Assembly: GCA_943359415.1 (NCBI GenBank)
Contig: CALRHQ010000001.1
Span: 1 to 38,069, forward strand
Reading direction: 5' to 3'
Length of the DNA: 38,069 bases
Origin: Candidatus Peribacteria bacterium
Lineage (GTDB): Bacteria; Patescibacteriota; Gracilibacteria; UBA1369; LOWO2-01-FULL-3
Positions 1 to 32,630 of this stretch are shown here, in pieces. Made by a program: the position numbers and the translations under genes. Under the pieces are notes generated by a model. That model was not told the DNA's origin and made no database searches. It saw nothing but the letters and a program-made list of their open reading frames with translations. How positions within the stretch are numbered: the first letter of the stretch is position 1; each line of letters opens with the position of its first letter.

Positions 1-620
1 TCAAGAAAAAATCCGGTTTTTTGCCCACCCAAAACATCTACATAAAATTTTATTCCATTTTCTTCGAATACAACTTCATCATCAACATTTCCGAAATGAA
101 CAACAGGTTCAAGTACTTTTAGCCCTTCCTGCTTACGTATTTCGACATCAGATCTCTCAACGATCGCAGAAGGTTTAAAAGCATTTTTCAGAGCTGAAAC
201 GATTTCTTTTCTAAAATTATCCATTCCGGCAGTATGGATTTGAAAAACAAATACATCAGCATATCGGTCTACAATAAGCCCGGGAAGAGAATCCGCGTCA
301 GCATAACAAAGTCTATAAGCATTAGTGTTTTCCGGAATAATCTTTTTCTTAGAATCATCAAGCTCCTTAAATCGTTTTTCAAAAAACTCACTATCGAAAA
401 CTTCTCCTCTATTTCTAGACAAAATTCTTACGCTGATAGAGCCTTGTGGATTGAAATATCCGGTTCCGACATATTCACCGCCATCAGAAAAGACCTCTAC
501 GATTTCGCCAATGTTCTTTGCTTCACACTTAGATATTCCATTCGAAAATATCCACGGATGACCTGAGGCAACAGGCATGTCTTTTTTTGGCTTTAAACTT
601 ATTTTAGGTGCATAAGGCAT
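1..620 (-). CDS. Class I SAM-dependent rRNA methyltransferase, RlmI/YwbD-like (PUA region and start of the MTase domain); 3' end runs off the window
   Basis: Absent from the ORF track because no stop lies in the window. My minus-strand translation from the ATG at 618-620 reads MPYAPKISLKPKKDMPVASGHPWIFSNGI...AYRLCYADADSLPGLIVDRYADVFVFQ...VDVLGGQKTGFFL. The HPW(I/V)FS, LPGLIVDRY and GQKTGFFL blocks are typical of PUA-containing RlmI-type methyltransferases. Confidence 0.6.
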   Translation of the reverse strand, partial: MPYAPKISLKPKKDMPVASGHPWIFSNGISKCEAKNIGEIVEVFSDGGEYVGTGYFNPQGSISVRILSRNRGEVFDSEFFEKRFKELDDSKKKIIPENTNAYRLCYADADSLPGLIVDRYADVFVFQIHTAGMDNFRKEIVSALKNAFKPSAIVERSDVEIRKQEGLKVLEPVVHFGNVDDEVVFEENGIKFYVDVLGGQKTGFFL

Positions 621-631
621 TAATCTTTAGA

Positions 632-1558
632 TTACCCTTTAAGACCTCCACCAAATAAAGAAACAGGATCAAATTCTTTGGCATCCTTAGGAGGTTCAAC
701 AATTACAGGTTTATTTATATCACCTATTGATATTGTTAATACGCCATCAACTTTTGCACCTGCCACAGGATCTGTAGCTTCAAAATCAAATTTGAATTTA
801 TGAACAGTTTTATCAGCTACTCCAACCCAAAAGTCAGCCTTTAACTGAACACCCTTAAGGTTATCATCAAGAGTTTTCAAATCTGCTTCAGAAACAGGTT
901 CTTCATATATTTCTCCTGATTCCTTTACGAAAGTTTTTATAGCTTCTTTATCCAAAACTGTTTCATAATGATAATCTCCATTTTCTTCACCGATATATTT
1001 CGCACCACTAAAGAATTGAGTATCTTTGAGTAAATTTTTCATCTTTTTTTCTTCAGAAGTAAGCTTGGAATCATCTCCAACAAGAGCGGAATCCTGTAAA
1101 GAATCAATCATATCTTGTGGAACTTGAGTTTTCCACCATTGTCCAAGCATAGGTTTAACCATATCTGCAGGTACAAGTCCTCCAAAGCTGCTAAGCTTGG
1201 AAACAATAAAGTACAAATCGGATTTATCAACTTTTACTTCCGCAGAAATATTTTCACCTTGTCCATCCATCATTCCAGTACCGTCAAATTTGAAATTCAA
1301 AAGAAGATTTTCAGGATCTCTCATGTCACCTGAACCTGAAAAAGCAAGATCAACACTCAAATCTTTTGCAGCTTTATCTACAATCTTTCCTGTAAGAGTT
1401 CCATCTCCTGAAGAAATATTTACATCATAAAAATTCTTAAGACCTTCTTTAACTATTTTATCTCCATCTTTTTCCGGATTAGGTGCCGAAAAACTACATC
1501 CTGAAAAAACGGTCAAAATCGCACCAACGGCAACTAAATTGCGAATAAATTTATTCAT
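632..1558 (-). CDS. Hypothetical lipoprotein
   Basis: 308-aa ORF with an ATG start. N-terminal signal peptide with lipobox (AILTVFSGC). Coding-like composition. No family recognised. Confidence 0.6.
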   Translation of the reverse strand: MNKFIRNLVAVGAILTVFSGCSFSAPNPEKDGDKIVKEGLKNFYDVNISSGDGTLTGKIVDKAAKDLSVDLAFSGSGDMRDPENLLLNFKFDGTGMMDGQGENISAEVKVDKSDLYFIVSKLSSFGGLVPADMVKPMLGQWWKTQVPQDMIDSLQDSALVGDDSKLTSEEKKMKNLLKDTQFFSGAKYIGEENGDYHYETVLDKEAIKTFVKESGEIYEEPVSEADLKTLDDNLKGVQLKADFWVGVADKTVHKFKFDFEATDPVAGAKVDGVLTISIGDINKPVIVEPPKDAKEFDPVSLFGGGLKG

Positions 1559-3164: not shown

Positions 3165-4148
3165 TTATTTTTTATTAAGCCATAATTCGTCGAAAGTTTT
3201 CCATTCATCCTCTGAAATTTCCCAATAAGGATAGATAGATATGCCGGAAAAAGTATCAAGATTACTTCTCAAATTATCAAGCCCCATAATAACACCAAGT
3301 ATTCCATTTTTTATATTTTCAATTTTTGGATCAAAATTATCACCGCCTTTTTCATAAGCTGGAATTCCAAAATAGATTTTTTTATTTTCAAATAAAGAAG
3401 TAATTCTTGTGACTTGCTCAACTATAAATTTTTTATAAAACCAACTGGAATGAAGTTTAGTATCATAAAGCATTACAACAATCTCGTCTGCATATTTAGC
3501 AACATTTTTATAATTGATCTCGGAATTTACATTCTCAAATTTCAAAACTTTCTCTGTAAACCACAAAAAAGATTGTGGGATAATATCCGGCAACGCAACA
3601 GACAAAACTTTTTCAGCAGTCATGTTTTCTTTACATTCTTTAAGAAGATTTACAAAAGCCAAATCATCATCAGACACAGGTTCTATATCAAAGTGAATAC
3701 CGTCAAAGCCGATAAACTGGCCAAGAATCTTACATTGATTAGCCACATTTTTTCTAATATTTTCATCATCTAAATCCAATTTACCGCGAATTTGTCCAAG
3801 CCATGCCTGATACTTGATATCCTTGTTTATTCTCTTCGCCTGCCTCAAAAAATAAGAAGAATAAATATATGATTTTTGTTCAATTTTTCCATCTTTTAAT
3901 AACGGCCCAACGTGCAAAAAAACATTTGTAATCTGATGACTTTGTAGAGTTTCAACAAATTGCTTGATCTGAGGTATGGTCTTCCTCTCTCCTATCCATT
4001 CATGGCCCGCCCAAACAGCATTATCACCTTTATTATACTCATGATCGCTACCAAATCTCGGAATTCCAACAAAATAAATTATCCCTAAAAACAGTGACAA
4101 AATAATCACTACGATAAGGCTCCAAATAAAAAAGCTAAATCTTTTCAT
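3165..4148 (-). CDS. Membrane-anchored glycoside-hydrolase-like TIM-barrel protein (GH18/GHL-like), function uncertain
   Basis: N-terminal TM helix (FFIWSLIVVIILSLFLGIIYFVGI). FDGIHFDIEP resembles the DGxDxDxE catalytic block of GH18-type barrels. No confident family assignment by eye. Confidence 0.45.
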   Translation of the reverse strand: MKRFSFFIWSLIVVIILSLFLGIIYFVGIPRFGSDHEYNKGDNAVWAGHEWIGERKTIPQIKQFVETLQSHQITNVFLHVGPLLKDGKIEQKSYIYSSYFLRQAKRINKDIKYQAWLGQIRGKLDLDDENIRKNVANQCKILGQFIGFDGIHFDIEPVSDDDLAFVNLLKECKENMTAEKVLSVALPDIIPQSFLWFTEKVLKFENVNSEINYKNVAKYADEIVVMLYDTKLHSSWFYKKFIVEQVTRITSLFENKKIYFGIPAYEKGGDNFDPKIENIKNGILGVIMGLDNLRSNLDTFSGISIYPYWEISEDEWKTFDELWLNKK

Positions 4149-4672: not shown

Positions 4673-6814
4673 TTACTTATTTATGAGAGAAAATGTTCTT
4701 ACAATCATATCGTCGAGTTCCTTCATAGTTATCGATTCATCAGGCCTGAAATATTCATATTGATCGACGATACCATTGTCCACAGCAAAATTTACATAAC
4801 GTGGATACCACCACATATAGCTTATTTTTGCGTTAATATCAACAAAAGATGAAGGTTGATTAGCCAATTTATCATTTCCGCCAAGATCTTTCGCCAATTC
4901 AAATTTATATTTAGGCCCTACAAGCTCTGTCGCTGTAAGAATAACTTTCAGGGCATCTATTCTGGAAATCGTTTCATCGGGCTTAAAAGGGCTATTTTTG
5001 TCATTTAAATAGCCATTTATAACTCCAAGCATTGTAGCAATGTTTATTTCTTCATAGTATTGATTATCTTTTTCAACATCAGGATAAAGAAGAAGGTCAG
5101 GCTCAAGAGTTATGCCGTCAAAAGAAGACATGGCCATAAAATTAAAAAGACAAAATTCTTTATAATTCAAACATTTTTGGATACTGTCTGATTCTTTATT
5201 TCTTAAATCAAATCTGTCGACGACCATTTTTATAACCTCCCCTCTTGAGACTACTCTTTCATTATCCAAATCGGAAATCGGTTTTTTTATTCCAAAAGAT
5301 TCTCCGTTGCCAAGGAATACAAAAGCTTTACCTCCATTTATTCTATTCGTTAAATCTGAATATCTGGACCCAACAAGTAAATCTTTGTTCAAGTCTCCAT
5401 TGAAGTCCAATATATCAAAGCTAAACCCAAACCAATCATCAGAATTTTCACCATGGATAACAGCGGAAAACTCATTTTTTCTTATACTGTAGCGAGATTT
5501 AGCCTCATCAATTTTAACGATATAAACATTCCCCTCTTTAAGGCTTATAGGATTTCCTATACCTGGAGCACCAATAATAACTTCACTTTTTGCATCGCCA
5601 TCAATATCTTCAATCAAAACTTTAGCACCAAGCAAAAGCTCATTTAAAGGATTTTCTATCACAAAGTCAGGTACAACAGATCTAATATTTTTCTTTGAAA
5701 AATCTTCTTTACCATAATAAATAGATACACGACTTTTATTTCTGGGTCCTTCGTATGGAAACGCTGAGATCGCAAAATCAGCTTTCTCATCATTATTTAT
5801 ATTTCCTGTAGCTATGGAAAATCCAAACCATTCATTGTCAAAAATACCGTTAACCACATTCGTAGGCTTATTTACAATTTTTTCAAATTTCTTATTTTCA
5901 TAAATATATACACGTCCAGTTTTATCCATGTTTTGAGTACCTGAATAATAAGCTCCAATAAGTAAATCAATTTTTTTATCACCATTTATATCCCCTGTCG
6001 CAAGAGAAGCTCCAAATCTCTCGCCTTTTGACTGTCCACGAAAAATAATATCAGCATTTGAAGCCAGAGGAGGATAAAAATAGATTCCGGATGATTTTCC
6101 ATAAAATACATACACCTTACCGCTTTCATCTCCGGTAGTGGACAAAGAAAAAGGTGCGGAAACGATTAGATCATCAATTTTGTCTGAGTTGATGTCTGCA
6201 CTTTCCATAAACATACCAAAGGCATCGTTGTCATCGAAACCATATATAGAGAAATCGGTGGATTTATAAGCTAGATCAATATTTTTTTCATTCCAAATGT
6301 TTTTTCCATGTACTATATATATCTGTCCTGGATGCTTATCTTTTTCGTAAGCATAAAAAGCCGAAGCATTGTATGCACCTATGGCTAAATCATCAGTCCC
6401 ATCTCCATTAAAATCCCCTGTCGTTAGGGAAGTACCTAACTGATCTCCTGAATTTCGTCCGGTAACTATAATATCAGCAGTAAAATTAAACGGATTTGGT
6501 TTTTCTGCAGAAAAGTTTTTATTCCCGAAATACACAAGAACCTGTCCATTCCATTTTTTTTCATCTATAGATGCGAATGGAGAGGCAATCGCGACATCTT
6601 GGATGCCATCATTATTAAAATCCCCACTTTTTGTGTCAGCACCAAATTGTCCACCAGGATAAATACCATCAAATTCAAGCTTAGAAGTGTCTACTGAAGT
6701 AAAGAGTTCATGTACATAGGCTTCGTCAAAATTTTCAGCTAATACGCTAATATTTAAAGACATTATAATGCAGACAAACACGGATGTTGAGACTAAAGTC
6801 TTTAAAGGACTCAT
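4673..6814 (-). CDS. Secreted FG-GAP (integrin-alpha-like) repeat protein with C-terminal SLH-like domains
   Basis: Repeated FG..xxxGDxNGDGxDDLxIGA units (GDFNNDGIQDVAIAS, GDFNGDGTDDLAIGA, GDINGDKKIDLLIGA, DFNGDLNKDLLVGS). C-terminal SLH-like segments (YPDVEKDNQYYEEINIATMLGVINGY..FKPDETISRIDALKVIL). Start moved to the ATG at 6812-6814 (MSPLKTLVSTSVF..., signal peptide). Confidence 0.8.
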   Translation of the reverse strand: MSPLKTLVSTSVFVCIIMSLNISVLAENFDEAYVHELFTSVDTSKLEFDGIYPGGQFGADTKSGDFNNDGIQDVAIASPFASIDEKKWNGQVLVYFGNKNFSAEKPNPFNFTADIIVTGRNSGDQLGTSLTTGDFNGDGTDDLAIGAYNASAFYAYEKDKHPGQIYIVHGKNIWNEKNIDLAYKSTDFSIYGFDDNDAFGMFMESADINSDKIDDLIVSAPFSLSTTGDESGKVYVFYGKSSGIYFYPPLASNADIIFRGQSKGERFGASLATGDINGDKKIDLLIGAYYSGTQNMDKTGRVYIYENKKFEKIVNKPTNVVNGIFDNEWFGFSIATGNINNDEKADFAISAFPYEGPRNKSRVSIYYGKEDFSKKNIRSVVPDFVIENPLNELLLGAKVLIEDIDGDAKSEVIIGAPGIGNPISLKEGNVYIVKIDEAKSRYSIRKNEFSAVIHGENSDDWFGFSFDILDFNGDLNKDLLVGSRYSDLTNRINGGKAFVFLGNGESFGIKKPISDLDNERVVSRGEVIKMVVDRFDLRNKESDSIQKCLNYKEFCLFNFMAMSSFDGITLEPDLLLYPDVEKDNQYYEEINIATMLGVINGYLNDKNSPFKPDETISRIDALKVILTATELVGPKYKFELAKDLGGNDKLANQPSSFVDINAKISYMWWYPRYVNFAVDNGIVDQYEYFRPDESITMKELDDMIVRTFSLINK

Positions 6815-6861
6815 ATATATAAGAATAGGAATGGGGGTAATTCGATTATAAGTCTCATTAG

Positions 6862-7226
6862 GTGGACAATCAACTAGACACATGTAGACAAATAGAATAA
6901 AATCATGCCGAAAGATGTCTACGTCTTGTCTATAGACATTAAAATAATAATAGACATGCAGCTAGTCAATACGTTGTCTACATATAGTTTAGATAGAAAA
7001 GCCGCAAGCCGCTTATTGAAAGTGTCAATAAGAACACTAGACAGGTATATAAAATCTCAAAAGTTGTCTAGTCGAGCTGAGAACGGGCATATTTGGCTTA
7101 GTAGAGAGGAGGTTCGTAAGTTTAAGAGTGGTCATGTGTCTACAGGTATAGTGGACAATGTCGACATGTCTACACGTGGTGTGTCTATAGACAAGACTGT
7201 GGACACGTCTATAGACAGTGTAGACA
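6862..7226. repeat. Dense array of TGTCTA/TAGACA hexamers (>=14 exact) including 12-bp palindromes TGTCTATAGACA; candidate operator/iteron-like array
   Basis: Exact hexamers start at 6875, 6885, 6916, 6927, 6933, 6951, 6975, 7038, 7065, 7137, 7167, 7182, 7188, 7212 and 7221. Perfect palindromes lie at 6927-6938 and 7182-7193, with a near-palindrome at 7206-7217. The variant GTGGACAAT occurs at 6862 and 7151. Confidence 0.85.
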
Positions 7227-7600
7227 GGGTTGAGGTGATTGAGGCTAAGGATAAAGAAAATTTGCCAAGAGAAGAAAAAGAGATATACAAAAAATTATAT
7301 TTCGACGTCAAAGAAGAGCTCAATATAAAACAAGAAAGGCTGGAAATAGCGAATTATAGAGTCGGGCAGCTTGAAGCTCAGCTCAGAAGCAGTATGCCGA
7401 TGCTTGAATTTCATAGGGATAAGTATCAAAGTGAAAAAGAGAAAGAAGACTTGAAGGAAAAAGTTGCAATCAAGGAAAAAGAGATTAAAGAAGTGTTTAC
7501 AAAGGTAAAAATAGAAAAATTTAATAAACGAATCCTTTTAATAATTCTCCTTTTCACGTTAGCACTACAACCACTTTGGCTTATTTTGTATTACGAATAG
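6905..7600 (+). CDS. Helix-turn-helix (excisionase/MerR-like HTH_17-type) DNA-binding protein with central coiled coil and C-terminal transmembrane helix
   Basis: LDRKAASRLLKVSIRTLDRYIKSQKL...HIWLSREEV is an HTH_17-like pattern. A long heptad-rich Glu/Lys segment (KEELNIKQERLEIANYRVGQLEAQL...KEKEIKEV) follows. The C-terminus is hydrophobic (ILLIILLFTLALQPLWLILYY). The start is ambiguous: ATG 6905 or ATG 6956 (MQLVNTL...). Confidence 0.65.
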   Translation: MPKDVYVLSIDIKIIIDMQLVNTLSTYSLDRKAASRLLKVSIRTLDRYIKSQKLSSRAENGHIWLSREEVRKFKSGHVSTGIVDNVDMSTRGVSIDKTVDTSIDSVDRVEVIEAKDKENLPREEKEIYKKLYFDVKEELNIKQERLEIANYRVGQLEAQLRSSMPMLEFHRDKYQSEKEKEDLKEKVAIKEKEIKEVFTKVKIEKFNKRILLIILLFTLALQPLWLILYYE

Positions 7601-7602
7601 GA

Positions 7603-8226
7603 TTATTTCATCTCTAGCACATCCTTTTGATCAATAGAAATGGATATTCCTCCGAAAGAGGCTCTTATTCTGTCAAAAATGCCTCCAGAAGCACTCAAAG
7701 CATTTTGTAGTGTTATCGCTTCACCTATAGCATTAAAAACATAAGGGGGGCTTAAAATAGTCCCATTAAGGTAGATTTGTCCTTTTGGCAGAGTGTCGAA
7801 TCCTGAAGATTCATTCGTTATACGTATGCCATTTATGTTCACAGCCTGTGAACCTGCATGAAAAAGTTCATTTATCAGGTCAACCATCCATGGAGAAGTG
7901 ATTTTCCCATTTATAGAAATAGAAATGCCTGGACCGTAAACAATATAATCACCTGAAAGTTTATTATATTTTTCTATTTCATCCTGTATGGCTTTGACAG
8001 CTGAATCTTGATTTGAAAGGCTTGATAAAGAGTTTTCCAATTCCTCGGTTTCATCTCTAAGATTTTGATTCTCTTCTTTTAAAACTTTAATTTCTTTGAA
8101 AACATCGCTTTTGGAATCTCTCAAAATTATGTCATTTACTGCATCAAAAGATCGACTTTCTATTATGATAAAACTACCAAGTATAATTGAGATAACCAAT
8201 ATGTAAATTTTTCTTTTATTTATCAT
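7603..8226 (-). CDS. DUF881-family membrane protein (YlxW/YlxX-like, division-associated)
   Basis: N-terminal TM, a coiled-coil stretch (LKEENQNLRDETEELE), then GPGISISI..., LINELFHAGSQAVNINGIRIT and LSPPYVFNAIGE blocks typical of DUF881. Confidence 0.75.
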   Translation of the reverse strand: MINKRKIYILVISIILGSFIIIESRSFDAVNDIILRDSKSDVFKEIKVLKEENQNLRDETEELENSLSSLSNQDSAVKAIQDEIEKYNKLSGDYIVYGPGISISINGKITSPWMVDLINELFHAGSQAVNINGIRITNESSGFDTLPKGQIYLNGTILSPPYVFNAIGEAITLQNALSASGGIFDRIRASFGGISISIDQKDVLEMK

Positions 8227-8955
8227 TTATTTTACAATATTTAGATTATTGGCTTTGAAATCTCCATTGTAGATAGGGATAGATAAAAAAGCCTTTGGGT
8301 CAGCCTTAAAACGAATCTCTCCTTTCTTGGATCTTTTATATATTGAAGGAAGCAAAGCTTCGTTCAATATTCTTTGCATGATACTTCCGCTATCTCCAAC
8401 GGCATTTATAGTGAAAGGTGGAGAAATATAGCTGTTATTGATCAATATGCTCGTTCCAATCGAAGAAATAGGGGATTGAGCTATAATGCGTTGATTATTT
8501 ATTGAGATAGCGTCTGCTTTTGCAGCATTCAGCATATTAACTAGATCTCTAATATCCGAAGCCTGTACAAGTAAGGCGTCAGAAATATTTGCCCCTTCTC
8601 TGGAAGCTGTAGGACTATCATCTATAACAATTTCTATACCTTCTCCTTCTACAACACTAAGTCCGATCTTTCTCTTTGCTTTATCAAGAGTTTCTATGTT
8701 TACATCCTTGGTTCTTGATTCTATAAGGCTCTGAGCTTTTTCTATTTCATTACGCAAAAACACGATTCTGCTTTGCAAATAAGACTGTTCATCCAAAAAA
8801 CTTTTCAACAAATCTTTTCTTGCATCAATTTCATCAACAGGAAAAGTATCTCCTTTTGGAACTTCAGTTTTAAATTGCCAAGTAAGAAGAAGCCCTAAAA
8901 CAAGGCCTGTTAAGGCAAACGATACTGCAAATTTTTTATTCTTATCTTCAAACAT
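8227..8955 (-). CDS. DUF881-family membrane protein (second tandem paralog)
   Basis: Same block order as the neighbour: GEGIEIVIDD, LVNMLNAAKADAISINNQRI, ISPPFTINAVGD. Start trimmed to the ATG at 8953-8955 (MFEDKNKKFAVSFALTGLVLGLLL). The track's extension to 9243 overlaps the divergent neighbour gene and looks non-coding. Confidence 0.75.
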   Translation of the reverse strand: MFEDKNKKFAVSFALTGLVLGLLLTWQFKTEVPKGDTFPVDEIDARKDLLKSFLDEQSYLQSRIVFLRNEIEKAQSLIESRTKDVNIETLDKAKRKIGLSVVEGEGIEIVIDDSPTASREGANISDALLVQASDIRDLVNMLNAAKADAISINNQRIIAQSPISSIGTSILINNSYISPPFTINAVGDSGSIMQRILNEALLPSIYKRSKKGEIRFKADPKAFLSIPIYNGDFKANNLNIVK

Positions 8956-9034
8956 TACTACGATAATATTATAACTGGCTCTGCAAAGCAATTTTTGGTA
9001 AAATTTGAACCGATCAAACACTAAGATTTGAACA

Positions 9035-10639
9035 ATGGAAAAAGAAGAAAAAATCTGTAAAAAATTAAAAGTACCGGAATCAAAATTAACACCGGAGGAA
9101 AGAATCAAACTTCTAATGTCATTTAGAAACGAGTGGAAATTATACAAAAGAAAATGTGATGCCACAGGTGAAGAAATATTAAGTGCATACCATCCTGACA
9201 GTAAATTCAAAGTATATAAAAATGAATACTGGTGGGGAGACAAATGGAATGCTTTAGACTATGGTCGTGATTTTGATTTTTCACGTGGTTTTCTTGATCA
9301 GTTCTCAGATCTTCAAAAAGTTGTTCCACGTGAAGGAACGTCTGTTTTTAATTGCGAAAATTGCGCATACAATAGCCATATTAGGGAATCTAGGAACTGC
9401 TATCTCAATTCACTTGTTTATAAATGTGAAGATATTTATTTTTCATACTGGATGGTAAACAACAAAGATGTTTTCGACTCAATGTGTATGCATGACAGCA
9501 CTCTTTGCTACGAATGTAACGAAGTAAGACAAAGCTACAATTGTATAGCATTGGGGGAATCCACAAATTGCCATGATTGCTATTTCTCCTACCAACTTCG
9601 AGGTTGCGATCACTGTTTATTTTCTTCAAATCTTAGCAATAAAAGCTATTATATTTACAACAAAAAATGCACTGAAAAAGAATTTAACGAAGAATTAAAA
9701 AAATATATAAACGGCTCTTACAAAGCATGGGAAGAAGGATGTAAAAAATATGTTGAGACAAAAGAATCGGCAATCCACAGGGCGACTCATGGCGTGAATT
9801 ACGAAAATTCAACAGGCGATCACATCTACAATTGCAAAAATTGTATAAATTGTTATGACAGTTTTGACAGTGAAGATTGCGAAAATTCGATTTCCCTAGG
9901 AAATTCAAAAGATTGCGCCTCTGTTTATTCAGCAGGCTGGCCTGGATGTAATGTGGTTTACGATTCTGTAACGACAAGGGGCTCAACAGAGATAGCTTTT
10001 TGCGTATACACATGGTTTTCCAGCAATTTACGTTATTGCGAAAGCATGAACGAATGTGACAGCTGTTTCGGATGCATAGGCTTAAATCACAAACAATACT
10101 GCATTCTAAATAAGCAGTACACAAAAGAGGAATATGAAATACTTATTCCGAAAATAATAGAACACATGGGTGAAACAGGGGAATGGGGGGATTTTTTCCC
10201 GAAGAACCTTTCCGCCTTCGCATACAATGAAACTGCCGCAATAGACTTCTTTCCTATGACAGAAGAAGAAGCAAAGAAAGAAGGATTTACATGGAAAGCA
10301 AAAGATACAAAAGAGTACAAGCCCACAGAAATAAAAAATATTCCAGACATGATCTCGGAAATAAACGATGATTTTATATCAAAAGTTTTGGCCTGCGAAA
10401 ACTGCGAAAAAAATTACAAAATAATAAATCAGGAATTAAATTTTTACAGAAAAATGGGTTTACCGATACCTAGATTTTGCCCTGAATGTAGGCATAAAAA
10501 TAGATTTGCACAAAGAAATCCAATGAAGATTTTCACAAGGAAGTGTGACAAGTGCGAAAAAGAAATAAACAGCAGTTACAAACAAGAAAGAAAAGAAAAA
10601 ATATTTTGTGAAGAATGTTACATAAATAGCATACAATGA
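9035..10639 (+). CDS. Cys-rich zinc-ribbon repeat protein of unknown function (paralog 1)
   Basis: 534 aa, about 36 Cys by my count, no signal peptide. A central run of ~12-aa C-x2-C/S units is followed by a C-terminal double ribbon: CENCEKNYKIINQELNFYRKMGLPIPRFCPECR...CDKCEKEI...FCEECY. Long conserved blocks are shared with 20335-21903. Confidence 0.8.
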   Translation: MEKEEKICKKLKVPESKLTPEERIKLLMSFRNEWKLYKRKCDATGEEILSAYHPDSKFKVYKNEYWWGDKWNALDYGRDFDFSRGFLDQFSDLQKVVPREGTSVFNCENCAYNSHIRESRNCYLNSLVYKCEDIYFSYWMVNNKDVFDSMCMHDSTLCYECNEVRQSYNCIALGESTNCHDCYFSYQLRGCDHCLFSSNLSNKSYYIYNKKCTEKEFNEELKKYINGSYKAWEEGCKKYVETKESAIHRATHGVNYENSTGDHIYNCKNCINCYDSFDSEDCENSISLGNSKDCASVYSAGWPGCNVVYDSVTTRGSTEIAFCVYTWFSSNLRYCESMNECDSCFGCIGLNHKQYCILNKQYTKEEYEILIPKIIEHMGETGEWGDFFPKNLSAFAYNETAAIDFFPMTEEEAKKEGFTWKAKDTKEYKPTEIKNIPDMISEINDDFISKVLACENCEKNYKIINQELNFYRKMGLPIPRFCPECRHKNRFAQRNPMKIFTRKCDKCEKEINSSYKQERKEKIFCEECYINSIQ

Positions 10640-30977: not shown

Positions 30978-32630
30978 TTGGTACTAGAATCAATAATAAA
31001 TCTTGACCAAGCAATCCTTGCAAAGATCGAACCGCTTCAAACGGAATTTTTTATAAAAGTTTTTAAAATAATGACAGACTTCGGAAGCGTAGCGGCTATA
31101 CTTATTTTTACAATTTTACTTCTGATATTTTTACTTTCAAAGAAGGAAATCCAAAAATTTTACGCTGTTGCGTTTACTGCATTTGGAGCATTTTTGACGG
31201 AATTTATATTGAAATATACTGTGCTACGAGAACGTCCTGAAAGGATGATTGTATTTGAAGATGATCCAAGTTTTCCAAGTGGACACACGACAATGTCTTT
31301 CGTATTTTTCATGCTTTTATTTTTTATATTTAAGGACAAAATAAAAAACAAATTTTTGAAATTTATATTTTTTGTAAGCTGTTTGACATTCGCATCACTA
31401 ATAGGATTTAGCAGATTATATTTGCATGTACACAATCCATCGGATGTATTTGCAGGAATAGTTATTGCCATATTTTGGCTCAGCATAGGGCTGAATTTCG
31501 CAGAGGAAGTCATTGCACTGAAAAATATGATACTTAAATTTTTATACAAAAACATTGTAAAAAGAATTGTTTTTCTTTTTGATCCGGAAGATATACATGA
31601 TCATTTCAATAAGATTGGAAGATTTTTGGGAAGCAATGTTGTCACAAGATTATTTACACGGGCGATTTTTTATTATAAAAATGAAGTACTTAAGCAAAAA
31701 ATTCTAGGAATAAAATTCGAAAATCCGGTTGGACTTGCGGCAGGTTTTGATAAAAATATCGAGCTTTATAAAATTCTTCCTGAAGTTGGATTTGGATATG
31801 AAGAAGGTGGGTCAATAACAGGAGATAAATGCTATGGAAACCCAAGACCAAGACTGTGGAGGCTAAAAAAATCTCAAGGGCTTATAGTATATTATGGGTT
31901 AAACAATAAAGGTGCCGACGAAATTTCAAATAGGATTAAAAAAGAAAAATTCAAATTTCCATTAGGCGTAAGTGTTGCAAAAACAAACTGCGAACGCACA
32001 GCGATGTCGGATGAAGGAATCAAAGATTATTTAAAAGGATTTAATCTCACAAAAGAAATCTGTTCATACATGACGATAAATATTTCATGTCCAAATACGC
32101 ATGGAGGACAGCCATTTACGGATCCAGAGTCGTTAGCTAAATTGTTAAAAGTGATAGCGAAAAATAGAAATAAAAAACCTGTTTTTTTGAAAATGCCACC
32201 GGACTTAAAACGCTCGGAAATCGACGACATAATAGAAATAGCTGCAAAGTCTAAAATAGATGGATTTATTTGCACAAACCTCACAAAAGACAGGACAAAC
32301 AAAAAAATGATGACGAAAATTCACGAAAAAAATATCGTAGAATTTGGTGGGATAAGCGGGAAACCTGTCGAAGATTTATCTAATGAAACGATAAAATATA
32401 TTTACAAAAAAACGCAGGGCAAATCAATAATCATAGGAGTTGGAGGTATATTTAATGCAGAGGATGCTTATAAAAAAATACGACTTGGTGCATCACTTTT
32501 GCAGATGATTACTGGCATGATTTTTGAAGGACCTCAGGTCATAGGAGAGATCAATCAAGGCCTTGTAAAACTTCTAAAAAAAGACGGCCTTGAGAATATC
32601 TCGCAGGCCGTCGGAATCGATAACAAATAG
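30978..32630 (+). CDS. pyrD: Fusion protein: N-terminal PAP2 (type 2 phosphatidic acid/undecaprenyl-PP phosphatase-like) membrane domain + class-2-like dihydroorotate dehydrogenase
   Basis: TTG start at 30978. PAP2 motifs KYTVLRERP, PSGH and SRLYLHVHNPSD lie in residues ~79-156. From Met184 (ATG 31527) a full PyrD follows: LFDPEDIHD, FENPVGLAAGFDKN, GNPRPRLWRL, NISCPNT, GGISG, IGVGGI. There is no stop between the two parts. Confidence 0.8.
   Translation: MVLESIINLDQAILAKIEPLQTEFFIKVFKIMTDFGSVAAILIFTILLLIFLLSKKEIQKFYAVAFTAFGAFLTEFILKYTVLRERPERMIVFEDDPSFPSGHTTMSFVFFMLLFFIFKDKIKNKFLKFIFFVSCLTFASLIGFSRLYLHVHNPSDVFAGIVIAIFWLSIGLNFAEEVIALKNMILKFLYKNIVKRIVFLFDPEDIHDHFNKIGRFLGSNVVTRLFTRAIFYYKNEVLKQKILGIKFENPVGLAAGFDKNIELYKILPEVGFGYEEGGSITGDKCYGNPRPRLWRLKKSQGLIVYYGLNNKGADEISNRIKKEKFKFPLGVSVAKTNCERTAMSDEGIKDYLKGFNLTKEICSYMTINISCPNTHGGQPFTDPESLAKLLKVIAKNRNKKPVFLKMPPDLKRSEIDDIIEIAAKSKIDGFICTNLTKDRTNKKMMTKIHEKNIVEFGGISGKPVEDLSNETIKYIYKKTQGKSIIIGVGGIFNAEDAYKKIRLGASLLQMITGMIFEGPQVIGEINQGLVKLLKKDGLENISQAVGIDNK

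Follow-up and report, generated by a model that had tools for sequence, protein, structure and literature searches.

A conserved array of TGTCTA/TAGACA hexamers across the promoter and coding region of a gene for a predicted membrane-anchored winged helix-turn-helix protein in Candidatus Peribacteria

Contig CALRHQ010000001.1 of a Candidatus Peribacteria bacterium (assembly GCA_943359415.1) was analysed over 38,069 bp (termed the window), and within it a gene for a winged helix-turn-helix (HTH) protein was found to carry about 20 copies of the motif TGTCTA/TAGACA across its promoter and coding sequence (CDS). The array accompanies this gene, designated the HTH gene, in a whole uncultivated lineage, and codon choice in its intragenic part argues for selection on the DNA rather than on the peptide. 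We consider it fairly probable that the array is a set of cognate sites for the protein encoded by the very gene in which they lie, and that their occupation results in autorepression and in a membrane-tethered nucleoprotein complex. In the following, we describe the array, its conservation and the predicted properties of the protein, and weigh this reading against the alternatives.

The hexamer array in the window

On both strands of the window, TGTCTA/TAGACA is present in 22 exact copies, 15 of which fall within positions 6875-7226 (352 bp, the array stretch under study), the other seven being isolated singles. The background density of the hexamer is 0.38 per kb, as counted over 670 kb of flanks around the orthologous genes in related genomes. 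Since this density predicts about 0.13 copies in 352 bp, the probability of finding 15 or more by chance is about 1e-25 (Poisson estimate), and the extreme local enrichment described in an earlier note on this DNA is real. The array further includes six one-mismatch copies (TGTCCA, TGTCGA, CGTCTA), with TGTCCA at 6863, 7152 and 7200, the palindrome TGTCGACA at 7159-7166 and CGTCTA at 7206, and the degenerate form of the motif can be written as TGTCYA/TRGACA.

Two clusters are separated by approximately 250 bp. Cluster A (6863-6980) is located 5' of the HTH gene and reaches into its 5' end. It comprises the degenerate site GTGGACAAT (6862-6870, with TGGACA at 6864-6869), TAGACA copies at 6875-6880 and, at a distance of 10 bp, 6885-6890 (both plus strand), a group of sites at 6916-6956 (TGTCTA at 6916, the palindrome TGTCTATAGACA at 6927-6938 and TAGACA at 6951-6956) and a last copy at 6975-6980, which forms its 3' end. 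Between the clusters, the HTH-coding part holds two further copies, one in the recognition-helix codons T-L-D-R (7038-7043) and one in the codons K-L-S-S (7065-7070). Cluster B (7137-7226) lies entirely in the linker-coding region and contains six exact hexamer sites and five one-mismatch variants; as the site at 7182-7193 is a 12-bp palindrome, the six exact sites provide seven hexamer copies. A second copy of GTGGACAAT (7151-7159) and the near-palindrome CGTCTATAGACA (7206-7217) also belong to cluster B. The coordinates given earlier for the two perfect 12-bp palindromes, for the near-palindrome and for both copies of GTGGACAAT proved correct, as did the linker peptide VSTGIVDNVDMSTRGVSIDKTVDTSIDSVDRV read from this region.

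Conservation of the array across orthologues

The comparison was based on 44 orthologous loci from species-representative genomes, mostly metagenome-assembled genomes (MAGs), each covered for 10 kb on either side of the gene. When exact hexamers were counted from 250 bp upstream to 400 bp downstream of the start of the tblastn match to the window protein, nearly all 44 loci were found to hold 6-18 copies, down to a protein identity of 35%, the exceptions being L040 and L042 with two copies each. The flanks of these loci contain the hexamer at background density. Counted from the Arg codon in the recognition-helix motif RTLDR (a trailing + denotes TGTCTA on the gene strand, a trailing - TAGACA), conserved offsets were found upstream (-166-, -156-, -125+, -114+, -103+, -97-, -87-, -68-), in the HTH-coding part (7-, 34+) and in the linker-coding part (121-, 130-, 136+, 151+, 157-, 169-, 178-, 190-). 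The orthologues therefore retain the array together with the protein and at conserved positions, in line with the functional role for which the earlier note had argued. Apart from motif copies in the FG-GAP gene of a single locus (L037), no other array was detected within 10 kb on either side of the gene in the 44 genomes. In the DNA covered, the hexamer is not generally frequent, and the earlier note had named such a frequency as a refuting condition. The copies in L037 (nine of TGTCYA at 9102-9341, inside the FG-GAP CDS) probably derive from V-Y codons of the FG-GAP repeats and do not represent a second array.

The array is also found outside the main clade. The most distant clade (L043-46, 35% identity) lacks both the linker peptide with its VD and SID motifs and the intragenic sites and has 7-12 copies upstream, and a second subfamily (L096 as query) and the more distant members L172 and L175 have upstream arrays of the degenerate TRGACA/TGTCYA. 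A metagenome-wide scan with the array pattern placed the array at 18 further loci carrying the gene among 124 loci, counted among the matches listed. Where the neighbouring genes change, either by absence of the FG-GAP or DUF881 genes or in distant subfamilies residing in other genomic contexts, the array follows the HTH gene.

One locus is peculiar in its arrangement. In L125 (RRYU01008972.1), 23 TGTCTA/TAGACA copies are located in a stretch free of open reading frames (ORFs) at 3592-4092, between lysS and a murI-like racemase gene and 2.3 kb from the HTH orthologue. This stretch resembles a duplicated unit of about 270 bp, and the upstream array of the orthologue itself is reduced to a single palindrome.

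Selection on the DNA sequence

Conservation of the linker peptide VDxVDMSTxxxSIDxxVDxVD is confined to the main clade, and the codons used for it are strongly biased. Among the orthologues, GAC makes up 76% of the codons for linker aspartate, and 174 of 191 (91%) where the aspartate follows V, I, M or L, compared with 27% in the neighbouring genes, which served as background, and 34% in the HTH gene's C-terminal part. The codon following a linker aspartate nearly always begins with A. Serine in the MST, VST and SID motifs is encoded by TCT in 81-84% of cases (background 22%), isoleucine of SID by ATA in 28 of 34, and the same bias applies to the T-L-D-R and K-L-S codons of the HTH domain. To quantify this constraint, the proteins were back-translated with background codon usage (codon resampling, with 5000 trials for the CDS in the window). 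The CDS in the window contains eight hexamers versus 0.79 expected, a number that none of the 5000 resamplings reached (maximum 5), and all orthologues together contain 237 versus 34 expected. Conservation of the hexamers beyond what the protein sequence requires, which the earlier note had raised as a question, is hence evident. In L125, the linker-coding region holds eight direct TAGACA copies in another reading frame (AGT-AGA-CAA), which yield SRQ repeats and not VD or SID, and the identical hexamer also fills the non-coding region upstream of the gene.

Codon choice, codon resampling, the frame change in L125 and the non-coding copies all argue that selection maintains the DNA motif and that the linker peptide is largely a by-product. 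As modelled (see below), the linker is disordered and would be the place where the constraint imposed by the sites costs the protein least. This makes the locus an unusually clean case in which a presumed binding motif overrides codon choice and dictates a conserved peptide inside the gene of its proposed binder. If this is correct, the need for sites has shaped the linker sequence, and one stretch of DNA serves both as peptide-coding sequence and as binding-site array.

These data also bear on the alternative that the repeats act not as DNA but as RNA, with inverted copies folding the mRNA for translational control, or that the peptide with its VD, MST and SID motifs is itself selected. Cluster B indeed folds strongly (-44.8 kcal/mol, z = -4.3), and members of the main clade share the peptide motif. 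However, the leader shows no excess of structure (z = -0.27), no Rfam match was obtained, two conserved copies lie 5' of the transcription start, and the pattern of orientations is not conserved, the eight copies in L125 being all direct and several orthologues having copies in the same orientation only. A selected peptide, in turn, does not account for synonymous codons fixed far beyond background or for a hexamer that is kept in another frame with another peptide and in non-coding DNA. We consider both versions of this alternative extremely improbable.

Site geometry and promoter

Of the 90 pairs of direct neighbours in the upstream non-coding cluster of the orthologues, 61 have a spacing of 10 or 11 bp. 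The spacings found for inverted pairs are 4, 6, 17 and 28 bp, and those of everted pairs are 9, 20, 30-31 and 41 bp. As these spacings step by one helical turn, the upstream sites are predicted to lie on one face of the DNA duplex. The intragenic spacings are multiples of three (9, 12, 15), as required by the reading frame.

A sigma-70-like promoter (T[A/G]GACA, 16-18 bp, TAnnnT) is present in 34 of the 44 loci, mostly at one offset, versus 0.7% of background windows. In the window, it consists of the TAGACA copy at 6875-6880 as -35 element, a spacer of 17 bp, which contains the copy at 6885-6890, and TAAAAT at 6898-6903 as -10 element (plus strand). It is this hexamer that is conserved in the orthologues as -10 element, and not TAGAAT at 6893-6898, which had been proposed before. 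In many orthologues TGGACA replaces TAGACA at the equivalent -35 position. Transcription of the HTH gene probably starts near position 6910, which would result in a leader of about 46 nt with four motif copies (6916, 6927/6933, 6951). The annotated ORF extends from 6905 to 7600 (231 amino acids, plus strand), but the most likely start codon is ATG 6956, because most orthologues either begin at the methionine that corresponds to codon 18 or show in-frame stops shortly before it; the probable CDS then covers 6956-7600 (plus strand) and encodes 214 amino acids, followed by the stop codon. The A of this ATG doubles as the last base of the TAGACA copy at 6951-6956. Of the earlier description of the first cluster as overlapping the promoter region and the first codons, the former part holds, whereas the supposed first codons are rather the 5' leader. 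On the opposite strand, a promoter-like site of the divergent gene for an FG-GAP/SLH protein (TTGATT, 17 bp, TATAAT; 6845-6873, minus strand) was recognised by a consensus scan only; its -35 element is flanked by the leftmost motif copies of the array (6864 and 6875) and abutted by GTGGACAAT at 6862-6870.

Autorepression is proposed because motif copies coincide with the -35 element (one copy) or fall in the spacer (one) and in the 46-nt leader (four), and the autoregulatory option of the earlier note is well supported by this overlap of sites and promoter. The overlap might also be read in the opposite way, namely that the hexamers are stacked -35-like elements, or that a different factor binds them, their association with the HTH gene being incidental synteny. 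TAGACA differs from TTGACA by one mismatch, and one copy does serve as a -35-like hexamer. On the other hand, copies are present in both orientations, helically phased, downstream of the start site and deep in the CDS, where they are under synonymous selection, and the array tracks the gene when the FG-GAP or DUF881 neighbours change and also with distant subfamilies elsewhere. This explanation therefore appears highly improbable.

The encoded protein

The HTH gene encodes a modular protein composed of a winged HTH domain, a linker, a presumed coiled coil and a transmembrane helix (residue numbers refer to the 231-residue ORF). The HTH domain (6983-7126, residues 27-74) matches Pfam HTH_17 weakly (E 7e-4), and within the family 21 of 22 members match HTH_17 (best E 2e-8) and 13 of 22 match Pfam MerR. 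In an AlphaFold2 model calculated from an alignment of 55 sequences, residues 27-74 adopt a winged HTH fold with the order beta-alpha-alpha-beta-beta-alpha; modelled alone, the domain reaches a predicted local distance difference test score (pLDDT) of 80. The best Foldseek match of this model is BldC on DNA (6ama; template modelling score 0.78, root-mean-square deviation 1.2 A over 49 residues, 28% identity). Other matches include the DNA-binding domain of RacA (5i44, 5i41), mycobacteriophage Xis, the excisionase RdfS, N-terminal domains of the MerR family, and the DNA-binding domain of pSK1 Par on centromere DNA (8csh, template modelling score 0.68); the Foldseek probability is 1.00 for RacA, BldC and Xis. 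A profile search of the PDB with the whole protein gave nothing useful.

The HTH domain is followed by a linker of about 43 residues (7133-7261, residues 77-119), predicted to be disordered (pLDDT below 50), and by a long alpha-helix (7268-7531), presumably a coiled coil, which includes the family-invariant block LEIANYRVGQLEAQ...P.LE.H. The model shows one continuous helix of 109 residues (122-230), transmembrane segment included. The helix block LE(I/G)A(N/H)YRVGQLEAQ...P.LE.H is the most conserved part across all subfamilies, exceeding even the HTH domain, which suggests a specific interaction beyond simple dimerisation, for example a partner-binding site. The corresponding segment in the window (7313-7420, LEIANYRVGQLEAQL..S.P.LE.H) has no match in Pfam or PDB. 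The C-terminal transmembrane helix ILLIILLFTLALQPLWLIL (7532-7588, mean Kyte-Doolittle hydropathy of 2.64 over 19 amino acids) is preceded by KFNKR and conserved across the family. As only three residues follow it, the protein is classified, on its sequence, as a tail-anchored membrane protein, with a MerR/excisionase-type winged HTH domain of the BldC/RacA/Xis type. With 214-231 amino acids, linker, helix and transmembrane segment, it is unlike the small stand-alone winged HTH proteins of the BldC family. It also differs from classical MerR regulators in having a disordered linker of 43 amino acids after the HTH domain, where those regulators carry their dimerisation helix, and a promoter spacer of 17 bp, not one of 19-20 bp with a palindromic operator, and no C-terminal effector domain was found.

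Proposed mechanism and its assessment

For the mechanism of the proposed self-site array, we infer the encoded protein (6956-7600) to be the binder, and likewise repression, oligomerisation and membrane tethering. Each HTH domain would dock on one 6-bp half-site (TGTCTA/TAGACA), the helices would oligomerise the protein, and sites of both orientations would be within reach of the HTH domains owing to the flexible linkers. Owing to the phasing of 10-11 bp, many weak contacts on one face of the DNA could sum up to a single cooperative complex. Occupied sites in the -35 element, the spacer and the leader would shut the promoter of the HTH gene, and the divergent FG-GAP/SLH promoter would probably be shut too by site occupancy. 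Cluster B, located 230-320 bp downstream in the linker-coding region, might extend the complex or loop it. Tethering of the locus is proposed because every bound protein would be anchored in the membrane, and the complex would thus keep this locus of the chromosome attached there, in the manner of RacA, RocS, RicO and pSK1 Par with their sites.

A plainer explanation is that the array is an autoregulatory operator, at which a membrane-tethered repressor controls its own and the divergent gene, for instance by looping between clusters A and B, and has no function in chromosome positioning. The promoter is conserved, and its -35 element, spacer and leader are all covered by sites. The distance of about 250 bp between the clusters suits looping, by which the intragenic operators lac O2 and gal OI also work, and the lack of another array within 10 kb of the gene in the 44 genomes is in accord with a local function. 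In contrast, about 20 phased sites are far above the normal need of autorepression. The conserved core gene, the membrane anchor and the invariant helix block suggest a structural role, L125 has its 23-copy ORF-free array 2.3 kb from the gene, and the closest architectural relatives are tethers and not classical repressors. We judge autorepression alone to be a rather unlikely account of the locus. The number and phasing of the sites, the anchor, the array of L125 and the architectural relatives favour the higher-order, membrane-held complex. A more far-reaching version, which we put forward only tentatively and consider possible but doubtful, is that the locus is a chromosomal self-marking membrane attachment site, where a tail-anchored RacA-like protein enters the membrane beside the gene that encodes it and nucleates on the approximately 20 sites. 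If true, such a self-marking locus would serve as a centromere or organising centre that needs one protein only, in a lineage whose cell-cycle toolkit is minimal.

Several points weigh against the membrane-tethered self-site array. That gene and array occur together is no proof of the encoded protein being the binder. The claim of the earlier note that the array consists of sites for the encoded HTH protein is nonetheless supported: the conserved array and the winged HTH fold bear it out, none of the computational checks suggested in the note refuted it, and the protein is the likely binder. Half-sites of 6 bp with inverted copies 4-6 bp apart are tight for two winged HTH domains. The presumed oligomerisation of the long helix as a coiled coil is deduced from a model of the monomer. 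RacA is the top PDB match by sequence but is not significant (E 0.22); in this non-significant alignment, its base-contacting residues K15 and R19 fall on the family-invariant R43 and R47 of SIRTLDRY. A comparison of protein and motif for covariation lacks power, as the helix S[IVL]RT[LVI]DRY and the motif TRGACA are both essentially invariant, also after a second homologue search that added four loci. The 44 genomes contain no further arrays within the 10 kb surveyed on either side of the gene, and a wider regulon or sites elsewhere may exist. Finally, the motif is not unique to the family, as the same hexamer array is present in unrelated metagenomic contexts (phage iteron-like arrays, archaeal-element-like loci).

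A distant family member (L174), with the recognition helix SVRTIDRLIKK, in which Y is changed to L, has two GAGTCGACAATT repeats and one TGTCTA upstream (3880-3960). It is a possible, single-case hint of covariation between protein and motif.

Genomic context and the question of an origin

The HTH gene lies in a conserved gene order that begins with GH18 and SpoU and continues with the leftward FG-GAP/SLH gene, the HTH gene itself, which points rightward, a leftward pair of DUF881 genes, a rightward racemase gene and, again leftward, guaA. In the window, the divergent neighbour is a gene for an FG-GAP/SLH cell-surface protein, assigned by Pfam (4673-6814, minus strand, likely start ATG 6814), whose synteny with the HTH gene is kept in most orthologous loci, and two convergent DUF881 genes (7603-8955, minus strand) follow, which are conserved neighbours in most clades. 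The DUF881 pair is missing in several clades and the FG-GAP gene in L043-46. A protein identical to that of the window is encoded on metagenome contigs with the same neighbours, and 475 homologues are detectable. Almost all of the latter and of the 44 loci are labelled as Candidatus Peregrinibacteria, Peribacteria or Gracilibacteria MAGs, a few loci being labelled otherwise or unspecifically (Nitrospirota, Patescibacteria group, plain "bacterium"). Because synteny is strongly conserved across the orthologous loci, the HTH gene is regarded as a vertically inherited chromosomal core gene and not as part of a mobile element. A gene for a partition NTPase (ParA, ParM or TubZ) is absent from the conserved neighbours listed above, unlike in plasmid-type centromere/operator arrays (ParR-parC, ParG-parH).

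The context is also relevant for the alternative that the array is a replication origin or an iteron array of the lambda O type, that is, an initiator gene with its own iterons in the linker-coding region. The layout is alike, and phage contigs with the same 12-bp palindrome have five palindromes in a winged-HTH ORF followed by an A-rich tract. In addition, dnaB is located 8 kb away, and the origin of Peribacteria reportedly carries short repeats and cannot readily be recognised by its gene content (PMC4736985). The replication-associated GC skew at third codon positions (GC3 skew), however, amounts to -0.20 left of the array and -0.13 to its right, and it has the same sign on both sides in 23 of 28 estimable loci, with no origin-type switch. 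The neighbouring genes are not typical of origins, and the protein has no initiator-like domain and is predicted to be anchored in the membrane. We consider an iteron origin very improbable. Of the iteron- or centromere-like site suggested in the earlier note, the centromere-like tether is plausible from the architecture of the protein, and the iteron-type origin is disfavoured by the GC3 skew. A replication origin with DnaA boxes was considered as a further candidate and rejected, given the same-sign GC3 skew on both sides and the absence of dnaA and dnaN from the window.

Details of the phage contigs are as follows: L168 (8328-8460), L170 (1249-1400) and L171 (2053-2190), all from IMG/VR, and L077 (661-800) contain five TGTCTATAGACA palindromes about 21-22 bp apart at a GC content of 55-61%. 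The palindromes lie inside the ORF of an unrelated winged-HTH rep-like protein, are followed by the A-rich tract and resemble a phage iteron origin.

Comparison with known systems

RacA of Bacillus subtilis, RocS of Streptococcus pneumoniae, RicO of Staphylococcus aureus and Par of plasmid pSK1 consist of a MerR-type winged HTH domain and a coiled coil, tether DNA and bind clustered specific sites. They reach the membrane or the pole through a C-terminal element, for which RocS and RicO, and probably also Par, use an amphipathic helix. RacA instead contacts DivIVA, and in this protein a disordered linker of 40-60 amino acids separates HTH domain and coiled coil. The protein of the window follows the same plan as RacA, RocS and RicO, with winged HTH domain, predicted disordered linker, presumed coiled coil and C-terminal membrane module. 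It differs in that the anchor is an integral transmembrane helix and neither an amphipathic helix nor a DivIVA contact, in that about 20 sites of 6 bp, found in any relative orientation, lie on its own gene, compared with 9-25 longer sites distributed over 600-700 kb around oriC, and in its lineage, the Peregrinibacteria of the candidate phyla radiation (CPR) and not the Firmicutes. Kinship with RacA, RocS, RicO and Par would thus be one of a shared working principle, homology being unproven. The authors of the RicO study described the distribution of the RicO-type family outside the Firmicutes as unknown. If our reading is true, DNA-to-membrane tethers of this type extend beyond that phylum.

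Par of the staphylococcal plasmid pSK1 forms a partition system of one protein, in which a winged HTH domain combined with a coiled coil binds sequence repeats. Its centromere repeats are said to be located directly upstream of par itself, and if this holds, sites at the own gene are common to both systems. Par, in contrast, is plasmid-borne and lacks a transmembrane helix, whereas the family described here is a chromosomal core gene in conserved synteny; we know of no sites inside the coding sequence of par. BldC of Streptomyces, the best structural match to the HTH domain, oligomerises cooperatively on arrays of variable numbers of short repeats via the winged HTH domain alone. It has 68 residues, no coiled coil and no anchor, and uses only head-to-tail direct repeats (AATT-N4-C), whereas the sites described here are, by their layout, direct, inverted and everted.

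Sites of a DNA-binding protein embedded in its own coding sequence have precedents. The iterons of ori-lambda are located in the CDS of lambda O, in its stretch coding for an interdomain linker, and a parS site lies inside B. subtilis spo0J, the gene for the protein that binds it. The array of the HTH gene is similar in being embedded in the CDS of its proposed binder. The known examples serve replication initiation or ParB loading, whereas the HTH locus shows no sign of an origin and its protein no ParB-like domain.

To our knowledge, nothing has been established experimentally on chromosome organisation or gene regulation in CPR bacteria. The locus offers a concrete, clonable pair of protein and site for this group, with a 6-bp motif, a soluble fragment of 190 amino acids and a target of 370 bp. 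The array is conserved across the whole uncultivated lineage, and its proposed role as a binding site is directly testable in vitro. Should the protein be an autorepressor only, a defined operator and promoter would still be useful for an uncultivated phylum.

Other occurrences of the motif and further features of the window

Apart from the loci carrying the gene, the matches listed from the metagenome-wide scan were microsatellite-like repeats, tandem repeats, phage iteron-like arrays and archaeal-element-like loci. In L049, L069 (9792-10191), L102, L112 and L155, dense hexamer arrays are located beside a gene for a conserved ribbon-helix-helix-like protein of about 172 amino acids (..KETYRDRWLREHPRVS.YLD...); by their appearance these contigs are archaeal plasmid- or virus-like, and this use of the motif appears to be independent. 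L157, a contig of 48% GC, encodes an unrelated HTH protein (MKIKELQERYNLKTRQSVYNWL...; 557-1141, minus strand) with about ten TGTCTA copies, including a palindrome, directly upstream (1080-1240), which may represent a parallel self-site array. In L054 (26-270) and L159 (2-266), 21-bp tandem repeats containing TCTATAGACA encode (A/V)LSIDNG repeats at contig ends of unrelated bacteria.

Within the window, a gene at 9035-10639 encodes a cysteine-rich protein of 534 amino acids without a Pfam match. In other genomes its relatives are also found around the locus, but their position varies. The overlapping ORF at 8227-9243 is probably an over-extended form of the second DUF881 gene (242 amino acids in gene calls). 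The ORF at 30978-32630 is an unusual fusion, in which a PAP2 phosphatase domain at the N-terminus is joined to a dihydroorotate dehydrogenase domain.

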